Source of the DNA: Shigella phage sb4
DNA length: 64,000 bases
Strand: one strand, 5' to 3'
Sequence record: PQ666542
In this document: one piece after another, positions 15,355 to 16,773 of the stretch
Layout of the letters: each line of letters begins with the position of its first letter
Numbering within the stretch: the first letter of the stretch is position 1
The notes under the pieces: model-generated
Databases searched by the model: none
Told to the model about the DNA's origin: nothing
Seen by the model: only the letters and a program-made list of their open reading frames with translations
Position numbers and translations under genes: made by a program

Positions 15355-16773
15355 TTATGGATAGGTATAGATTATACCAGTTTCTAAAGCAGTTTTATGA
15401 ATGATGTATTCATTACGCGATTCTTGGACATCGACTTCTGTATAGTCTTTTATCATCTTCTGAAGAGTGTAACGATGCAAGTAATACTTACTATCTGGGT
15501 CGTCAGTTTTCCAATCTTTACCTTCTTCAGTCATTTTTTGGATTTCATCCATAACCCACCAACCGCACCAGATATAAGCTGAAGTACGATGTGGAAGAGG
15601 ATGAACATAAGGCAATTCACCTTCTGGTTCCGGAGCAACTTTATCAGTTACTTGAACTTGACCAGTCGCTTTAACTGTTTTACTATCATAGTCGGTTGCT
15701 GTAACGACAGCAGTAACTTCAATAGTTTGACTTACAACAGATGAGGTGTCAACGGTGTATACGTTAGTTGACCCTTCCACAGGAGAAGAATCTTTCTTCC
15801 ATGAATAAGTAATTTGTGCTGCTTCAGGTGCTCCAGTAACATTAGCTGTAAATGTAGCCGAAGCATCTTGCTGAACGTTAATAGAAGGAGGAGTCAATGC
15901 AATCTGTGGATTCATTGTCTTCTTATTAACAGTCAATGATACTTCATTAGAAGTAACTTCCTTTTCATTGTAATTTTCTGCAGTTACTTGCGCTACACAC
16001 TTAACTGTTTTAGCTCCAACTGTGGTAGGAGTATAGTTAAATGTAGTAGTAGTTTCTCCATCGACCAGAGAACCGTCAACATACCACTGATACGTAGCAG
16101 ACGCTCCTGGTGGCTGTGAAGCCAAGGTAGCAGTAAATTGAACTGGGGTTCCAATAACTCCTGCTGGAGGATTAGCAGGAGTTACGGCTAACGTAGTTGT
16201 CTGTGTTTTCTTATTAACAGTCAGTGACACTTCATTAGAAGTAACTTCCTTTGCATCATAATCTGTCGCGGTTACTTGAGCTACACACTTAATTGTTTTA
16301 ACTCCGCTTGCGTCAGGAGTGTAATTGAATGTAGTGCCAGTTGCTTCGCCCACAGGAGAACCGTCAACGTACCATTGATATGTAGCGTTTGCACCTGATG
16401 GCTGTGAAGCTAAGGCAGCGGTAAATTCAATTGGAGTTCCAATCACTCCAGCATCAGGGCTACCAGGAGTTACAGCTAATGTAGTTGTCTGTGTTTTATT
16501 TTGAACTGTGATAGTTGTAGTAGCTTCTGCCGTTTCAGCATCAGTATCTGGAATTGTATTTGTTGCAACTACTTTAATAGTCTTTTGACCGGCAGGTCCT
16601 TTTAGTACATAACTAAAAGTTGCTTCAGTTCCATCTTGTGGAACATCGTCTACAGTCCAAGCATAGGTAATAGTTCCACCTCCAGTTTCACCACTGGGTG
16701 TAGCAGTAAACTGCTGAGTCTGATCTATAACTCCAGTAGGTGTTTTAGGAGTTATATCAACTGTAAAAGCCAT
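15355..16773 (-). CDS. hoc: Hoc outer capsid decoration protein with four tandem Ig-like domains
   Basis: 472-aa ORF; N-terminal Ig-like repeats and a C-terminus (EGELPYVHPLPHR...GIIYTYP) matching recalled T4 Hoc. About 100 aa longer than T4 Hoc (376 aa) because of an extra domain. Confidence 0.9.
   Translation of the reverse strand: MAFTVDITPKTPTGVIDQTQQFTATPSGETGGGTITYAWTVDDVPQDGTEATFSYVLKGPAGQKTIKVVATNTIPDTDAETAEATTTITVQNKTQTTTLAVTPGSPDAGVIGTPIEFTAALASQPSGANATYQWYVDGSPVGEATGTTFNYTPDASGVKTIKCVAQVTATDYDAKEVTSNEVSLTVNKKTQTTTLAVTPANPPAGVIGTPVQFTATLASQPPGASATYQWYVDGSLVDGETTTTFNYTPTTVGAKTVKCVAQVTAENYNEKEVTSNEVSLTVNKKTMNPQIALTPPSINVQQDASATFTANVTGAPEAAQITYSWKKDSSPVEGSTNVYTVDTSSVVSQTIEVTAVVTATDYDSKTVKATGQVQVTDKVAPEPEGELPYVHPLPHRTSAYIWCGWWVMDEIQKMTEEGKDWKTDDPDSKYYLHRYTLQKMIKDYTEVDVQESRNEYIIHKTALETGIIYTYP
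15920..16500 (-). repeat. Tandem duplication of an Ig-like domain coding unit (~290 bp, 2 copies) inside hoc
   Basis: Near-identical DNA at about 15941-16040 and 16211-16310; the protein repeats NKKTQTTTLAVTP...YQWYVDGS...KEVTSNEVSLTV twice. Confidence 0.7.

Follow-up and report, generated by a model that had tools for sequence, protein, structure and literature searches.

The hoc gene of Shigella phage sb4 (record PQ666542) lies within a 64,000-nucleotide stretch of DNA, referred to here as the window, and is longer than hoc of T4. The question raised by this locus is whether the additional sequence is a recent tandem duplication, as an earlier note on this DNA had proposed, or an allele of older standing. 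Hoc is the capsid adhesin behind the idea of bacteriophage adherence to mucus, and T4 nanoparticles use it as their main display scaffold. How many Ig domains it has, and of which type, could thus bear on how well therapeutic T4-like phages are retained at mucosal surfaces and on how far displayed antigens reach. [quoted passage not shown] Through its Ig-like domains it adheres weakly to mucins and to the surfaces of bacteria, and homologues with 1 to 10 Ig domains have been described (PMC10385173). The published variation in domain number covers only distant Hoc homologues and a two-Ig variant (PMC10385173, PMC11853027), and our literature search found no paper, in the searchable library, on the 472-aa Hoc of Tequatrovirus or on a series of one to four cassettes at the level of the genus.

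A single intact minus-strand ORF spans exactly positions 15355-16773 of the window, with 472 codons and no internal stop or frameshift. In the PHROG search it matched phrog_1149, 'Hoc-like head decoration' (E 4.6e-144), its protein matched the T4 Hoc chains of the PDB (5vf3, 8t1x and 8t9r; e.g. 5vf3_Z, E 2.3e-207), and the gene is 95% identical in nucleotides to the annotated hoc of JEP6, pSs-1 and others. The gene order inh-hoc-24.3-24.2-rnlB is that of T4 and ECp13, which is the genomic position expected of hoc. The capsid-binding end that characterizes the family is present as well, with residues 273-472 aligning to T4 Hoc 177-376 (E 1e-116) and residues 408-472 matching the C-terminal Hoc family phrog_21694 (E 1.6e-38). 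The predicted product is a T4-type Hoc capsid-decoration protein, and the naming of the gene as hoc in the earlier note is borne out by the profile, the PDB chains and the synteny. The inh stop codon lies 9 nt before the hoc start, and the approximately 140 nt upstream of hoc show no T4 late-promoter motif; because of these two features, co-transcription of hoc with inh is plausible. The parts of the gene and its neighbors are listed in the table.

Table. Features of the hoc locus, in window coordinates
Feature	Position	Strand	Evidence
hoc CDS, 472 aa + stop	15355..16773	-	ORF list, phrog_1149, T4 Hoc PDB chains
Ig-like domain 1, aa 1-92	16498..16773	-	aligns with T4 Hoc aa 1-92; AF2 beta-sandwich
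Domain-2 unit A, aa 93-188, 'first-position' cassette	16210..16497	-	repeat copy; PKD/PKD_4 matches
Domain-2 unit B, aa 189-284, 'last-position' cassette	15922..16209	-	repeat copy; PKD match aa 196-265
Ig-like domain 3, aa 285-376	15646..15921	-	Ig_3 and I-set matches aa 289-373; aligns with T4 Hoc aa 189-280; AF2 beta-sandwich
C-terminal capsid-binding domain, aa 377-472, + stop	15355..15645	-	aligns with T4 Hoc aa 281-376, nearly identical
inh (prohead protease inhibitor), upstream neighbor	16783..17463	-	phrog_1051, E 3.6e-99
Gene 24.3-like small ORF, downstream neighbor	15050..15259	-	phrog_1566, E 3.3e-31; position as T4 24.3 and ECp13

At 1419 bp, the gene exceeds the 1131-bp hoc of T4 (376 aa) by exactly 288 bp, or 96 aa, which makes precise the figure of about 290 bp given previously. 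In the protein alignment, these 96 residues form one clean in-frame gap and the remainder of the protein is collinear. T2 and T6 also have the single-unit form, so that hoc of all three phages is one 288-bp unit shorter than the gene studied here. Four Ig-like domains in place of the three of T4 had been suggested, and the Pfam, alignment, AF2 and Foldseek results agree that the domain-2 unit is present twice. Pfam returned PKD-type matches on both units and Ig_3/I-set matches on residues 289-373. The AF2 model, computed from an input of 29 homologues, has four consecutive all-beta domains with a pLDDT of about 85-96 over residues 1-377 (86-94 in domain 1, which is 89% identical in nucleotides to that of T4); its confidence is low in the C-terminal domain, falling below 50 for residues 382-406 and 444-472. 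The best Foldseek matches of this model in the PDB were fragments of four Ig domains (Dscam1 Ig1-4, ICAM-5 D1-D4, Sidekick Ig1-4 and LILRB2, probability 1.00), and the three-Ig crystal structure of RB49 Hoc (3shs) was also matched with a probability of 1.00. The N-terminal string of Ig-like beta-sandwiches that is typical of Hoc is thus present, and on the basis of the Pfam, AF2 and Foldseek results the predicted architecture is Ig1, Ig2A, Ig2B, Ig3 and capsid-binding domain, one Ig domain more than in T4.

The additional unit forms a tandem repeat. TRF reported a two-copy array with a period of 288 at positions 15916-16497 (score 766, 81% matches), and a separate repeat search returned two copies of 288 nt with a spacing of 288. 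In-register identity at an offset of 288 runs from 0.67 to 0.90 within the unit and collapses to 0.2-0.5 immediately outside it, and therefore the repeat is real, sharply bounded and far beyond chance. The tandem repetition of one Ig unit described in the earlier note holds, as two copies with a period of 288, but the near-identity of their DNA does not. Units A and B share 80.2% of their nucleotides and 77% of their amino acids, and the longest exact in-register run between them is 24 nt. Their 57 differences in 288 nt are distributed over the three codon positions as 15, 14 and 28, and with a dS of about 0.55 and a dN of 0.15 they show purifying selection (dN/dS 0.27). This dS is larger than that between the gene studied here and T4 hoc in domain 1 (0.26) or in domain 3 and the C-terminus (0.36). 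The single unit of T4 is 78% identical in nucleotides to unit A and 81% to unit B, compared with 80% between A and B. Conservation is highest at the ends of the unit, where the first 24 nt and the last 48 nt have an identity of 0.92 and exact runs of 24, 17 and 16 nt are found. A recent duplication would be recognized by copies that are near-identical, absent from the closest relatives and each other's nearest relatives; none of these three was found, and the two copies of domain 2 are best regarded as old and diverged, not as a fresh duplication.

The genome is assigned to Tequatrovirus, and the 24 kb around hoc match Escherichia phage ECp13 at 97.1% identity, and ADUt, sb3 and pSs-1 at 96-97%. 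Within this region hoc is a local peak of divergence, with an identity to ECp13 of 89% inside the gene and 97.7% outside. The earlier note named a four-domain Hoc in all the closest relatives as a result that would speak against it, and this is largely what is seen: the 1419-bp gene is present in ECp13, sb3, pSs-1, sb2 and sb1, and the match lengths in phage 132 and KRT47 fit it, the exceptions being ADUt and LYE-01, with a hoc of 1131 bp. Hoc of sb3 has 472 aa and the architecture seen in the window, and the same length and architecture are found in JEP6 (MT764206) and pSs-1 (KM501444 / NC_025829), whose whole genes are 95.0% and 94.7% identical to the one studied here. ECp13 (PP274704), the closest genome over the 24 kb, encodes a 472-aa Hoc too, but its second cassette differs (83% identical).

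JEP6 and pSs-1 share the 576-nt block of the two units without a single difference, and in BYEP02 it is 99-100% identical. Taken singly, unit A is identical at every nucleotide to unit 1 of JEP6 and pSs-1, and unit B to unit 2 of JEP6, pSs-1 and BYEP02. Domains 1 and 3 of JEP6, on the other hand, are only 92% and 87% identical to those of the window. Since the block is identical in JEP6 while the domains that flank it diverge, the cassettes move as modules. T4 Hoc (NP_049793, 376 aa) occupies the same position between inh and 24.3, and outside domain 2 (domains 1 and 3 and the capsid-binding part) the two genes are collinear, with about 89% nucleotide identity. It has one domain-2 unit against the two found here, and neither of these is its orthologue, because the unit of T4 corresponds to an inner cassette of the three- and four-unit alleles.

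The two-unit gene is one member of a series, each form of which is an intact ORF at the DNA level. T4 and ADUt have one unit (1131 bp, 376 aa), the window, JEP6 and ECp13 two (1419 bp, 472 aa), UGKSEcP1 and OMNI12 three (1707 bp, 568 aa) and slur08 four (1995 bp, 664 aa), the 664-aa class also including slur03, slur14 and FJ1. The flanking domains and the 96-aa cassette family of the 568- and 664-aa alleles are those described here, with one or two extra inner cassettes. Among the best 120 cluster representatives of the protein search, 74 were of 376 aa, 29 of 472 aa and 8 of 568-570 aa. A query with a single unit found 890 unit-sized matches in 616 phage records, and in a systematic sample of 60 of those records one unit was counted in 36, two units in 20, and three and four units in 2 each; an independent whole-gene sample had about 18 long and 31 short forms. 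The two-unit allele therefore occurs in about a third of sequenced T4-like coliphages. The earlier statement that Hoc domain number varies among T4-like phages is in agreement both with this range of one to four units and with the literature (PMC10385173, PMC11853027). The comparison also shows how this variation differs from that already described. RB49 Hoc (PDB 3shs, a structural match; three Ig domains), PNJ-9 Hoc (two) and Hoc of Serratia phage Muldoon (ten) have distant sequences or different domain losses, whereas here it is the copy number of one cassette that varies inside one genus.

The relationships among the units follow their position in the gene. In an unsupervised clustering of 155 units, taken from the window's own Hoc and from 110 cluster representatives (111 proteins in all), 29 of the 30 first-position units from two-unit proteins and all 7 from three-unit proteins fell in one cluster; later-position units form other groups, and single-unit proteins carry either kind. 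First units differ from one another by a mean amino acid distance of 0.113 and from second units by one of 0.206, and the smallest distance between units of the same protein was 0.146 (14.6% aa) across the 111 proteins. Units are thus closer to units at the same position in other phages than to the neighbor in their own gene. Direct DNA identities, obtained from nine fetched genes, follow the same pattern. Unit A is 90-92% identical to the first unit of slur08, OMNI12 and UGKSEcP1, while unit B is 98.3% identical to the last of the four units of slur08, 97.6% to the last of three in OMNI12 and 96.5% to the last of three in UGKSEcP1. The single unit of T4 is 88.5% identical to unit 3 of the four in slur08 and 91.7% to unit 2 of the three in OMNI12. 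Cassettes at least 95% identical to unit B were found in 43 records, in alleles with one, two, three and four units.

Below the level of the cassette, the units are strongly mosaic. Labels of three unit types, with the units of the 568-aa Hoc of UGKSEcP1 as references, were tried and rejected, as many units were ambiguous or chimeric at the sub-unit scale; a strict typology of units fails because of this sub-cassette mosaicism. Single-unit alleles were also inspected for the trace of a deletion, which would be the head of a first unit joined to the tail of a later one. The T4 unit has a later-type head and a tail closer to those of first units, and so it is not the simple product of unequal crossover.

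Taken together, we give a probability of about 0.88 to the reading that the window encodes a functional Hoc belonging to a genus-wide series of one to four cassettes, its allele combining a first-position and a last-position cassette. A recent and lineage-specific tandem duplication of a T4-type domain 2, with near-identical and readily recombining copies, would equally produce a two-copy array in TRF and a gene that exceeds hoc of T4, T2 and T6 by one 288-bp unit, but it would not produce copies that are 80% identical, with a dS of 0.55 and no exact run beyond 24 nt, nor a unit B that is 98% identical to unit 4 of slur08 and only 80% to unit A. Nor is either copy an orthologue of the T4 unit (78% and 81%), which is itself 88-92% identical to an inner unit of slur08 and OMNI12. 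Each unit has a fully identical counterpart in JEP6 and in pSs-1, the 1419-bp form prevails among the closest relatives and two units are found in about a third of records, and we consider such an origin very improbable. The recency claimed in the earlier note is accordingly contradicted by the synonymous divergence, by the clustering of units by position and by the 576-nt block shared with JEP6 and pSs-1. Hardly any credence can be given to an assembly or sequencing artefact in which mis-assembly expanded the repeat of a gene truly 1131 bp long, since mis-assembly yields identical copies and not a 20% divergence with a coding-like pattern (15, 14 and 28 differences by codon position), and since the two-unit block, unchanged, and the ORF of 1419 bp recur in independent isolates from different laboratories; the points in its favor are the in-frame stops in gp24, gp27, gp28, gp48, uvsW and rnlB and the excess of private transversions.

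A third alternative is that hoc is present but non-functional and decaying, like the frameshifted copies in some records of T2 and T6. Hoc is dispensable, the T6 record MH550421 has no annotated hoc CDS and its sequence has a +1 insertion, and in the T2 record PV958097 an 11-nt deletion and further small indels split the gene into three fragments. Nonsense codons are present in genes neighboring hoc in the window, and the protein itself has three private substitutions, G347V, P445T and G455E, at sites invariant in 110 homologue clusters, the last two of them in the capsid-binding domain. Against this, the 472-codon ORF is intact, and in comparison with JEP6 no private change is present in the 576 nt of the cassette block. 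Furthermore, the three substitutions may be sequence errors instead of biology, because they fit a window-wide excess of G>T and C>A changes. A decaying hoc is therefore regarded as unlikely. An exact look-up of the 472-aa window protein in a public gene index returned no record, which is probably due to the same three substitutions.

The quality of the surrounding sequence calls for a comment of its own. In-frame stops were found in rnlB (four), uvsW (three), gp27 and gp28 (two each) and gp24, gp48, 24.2 and gp26 (one each), all of which are intact in ECp13; several of these stop-bearing genes around hoc are essential, and gp25 has a 1-nt difference in length. The window has 176 private transversions in the 24 kb, predominantly G>T, C>A, T>A and A>T, compared with 36 in ECp13 and 68 in ADUt. 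The stops and the transversion excess point to errors of sequencing or of the consensus, to damaged DNA or to a mutagenised stock, and this copy of hoc may itself include errors or derive from a damaged genome. The conclusion on hoc is not affected by this caveat, because the cassette block is without private change.

As a mechanism for the cassette series, we propose in-register gain, loss and exchange of cassettes, for which recombination at the conserved cassette ends is the most plausible route. Such changes in number would take place on an evolutionary timescale and would not reflect a hot repeat inside this genome; the description of the repeat as recombination-prone would then hold at the level of the population, where one to four units are found, and not for the sequence identity within the gene. 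The series may have arisen either by loss of cassettes from a multi-cassette ancestor or by stepwise gain. We put forward more tentatively, at somewhat less than even odds, that the natural hoc alleles of Tequatrovirus are collinear subsets of one ordered array, in which up to four domain-2 cassettes of ancient divergence follow one another. Under an array of this kind, T4 may keep an inner cassette, the window the first and the last, and slur08 all four, with sub-cassette mosaicism on top. If so, in-register recombination would tune the length of the fibre, as well as how many adhesive surfaces the capsid displays and of what type.

With regard to function, the fibre encoded here is expected to be about one Ig domain longer than that of T4, adding roughly 40-45 Å to about 180 Å. 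The domain-2 surface, which has been implicated in adhesion to mucin and to bacterial surfaces, would also be present twice. In PNJ-9 Hoc, the domain-2 residues S183, L184 and T185 are needed for MUC2 binding (PMC11853027). The motif NEVSLT occurs in the window protein at residues 180-185 and again at residues 276-281, once per unit, and its presentation on two cassettes with differing variable positions could alter reach, avidity or specificity.

The four-Ig hoc is an ordinary, common and already known allele, neither recent nor novel, and its extra domain is not to be taken for a fresh, unstable duplication; the population-wide series of one to four cassettes may merit a dedicated comparative study. 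GenBank has contained the identical two-cassette block since the pSs-1 record (KM501444), and roughly 200 phage records have an annotated Hoc gene with two units, under names that include 'large head outer capsid protein', 'PKD domain protein' and 'Hoc-like head decoration'.

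Relative to ECp13 (PP274704), the closest genome over the 24 kb around hoc, the hoc gene of the window (15355-16773) forms a sharp local peak of divergence within positions 5000-29000, with 89% identity in hoc and 97.7% elsewhere in these flanks. Identity is lowest, at 83-90%, over the two domain-2 units, A and B, and this trough is consistent with exchange of alleles or cassettes. BYEP02 encodes two units that are almost those of the window, with nucleotide identities of 99.0% for unit A and 100% for unit B. Longer Tequatrovirus Hoc proteins also occur: a 568-aa form contains three domain-2 units and five Ig-like domains in all, and a 664-aa form contains four units and six Ig-like domains. 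The units inside one gene share 74-84% DNA identity in slur08, OMNI12 and UGKSEcP1. The T2 and T6 records each have a frameshifted hoc with one domain-2 unit.

The window Hoc has three private residues at sites that are invariant among 110 Hoc cluster representatives (G347V, P445T and G455E); two of these changes affect the capsid-binding domain, and two match the G>T/C>A pattern. Comparison of positions 5000-29000 with ECp13 and ADUt, another close relative, showed 388 substitutions private to the window, 176 of them transversions, versus 36 private transversions in ECp13 and 68 in ADUt. The main classes of transversion in the window were G>T (44), C>A (38), T>A (32) and A>T (26), and the surplus of G>T/C>A resembles oxidative damage or consensus error.

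Several window genes carry in-frame nonsense codons that arose by substitution, without indels, while their ECp13 counterparts are intact and of equal length. Besides rnlB, three in-frame stops are found in uvsW, two each in gp27 and gp28, and one each in gp24, gp48, 24.2 and gp26; gp25 is 1 nt shorter than in ECp13. Because several of the stop-bearing genes are essential, either the window sequence is full of errors or the genome is non-viable or suppressor-dependent.

Coordinates of the features compared (L numbers are extracts of other phage records, with positions counted within each extract)
Feature	Location	Observation
Stop-bearing genes and gp25 region	window 12458-13741, 13771-14775, 14785-15063, 17520-19031, 20242-21265, 22065-23718, 25496-26590	compared with ECp13
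rnlB	TAA at codons 3, 19, 21; TGA at codon 211	four in-frame stops relative to ECp13
G347V	hoc codon 347	GTA, private to window
P445T	hoc codon 445	ACA, private to window
G455E	hoc codon 455	GAA, private to window
BYEP02 hoc	OR757454, L002 1501-2996	
slur08 hoc	LN881733, L009 1525-3519	ORF intact
OMNI12 hoc	OL362041, L010 1225-2931	ORF intact
UGKSEcP1 hoc	OV877085, L006 2001-3707	ORF intact
T2 hoc	PV958097, L007 801-1917	11-nt deletion and small indels; annotated as three fragments
T6 hoc	MH550421, L008 2590-3849	+1 insertion near position 478 of T4 hoc; no annotated CDS
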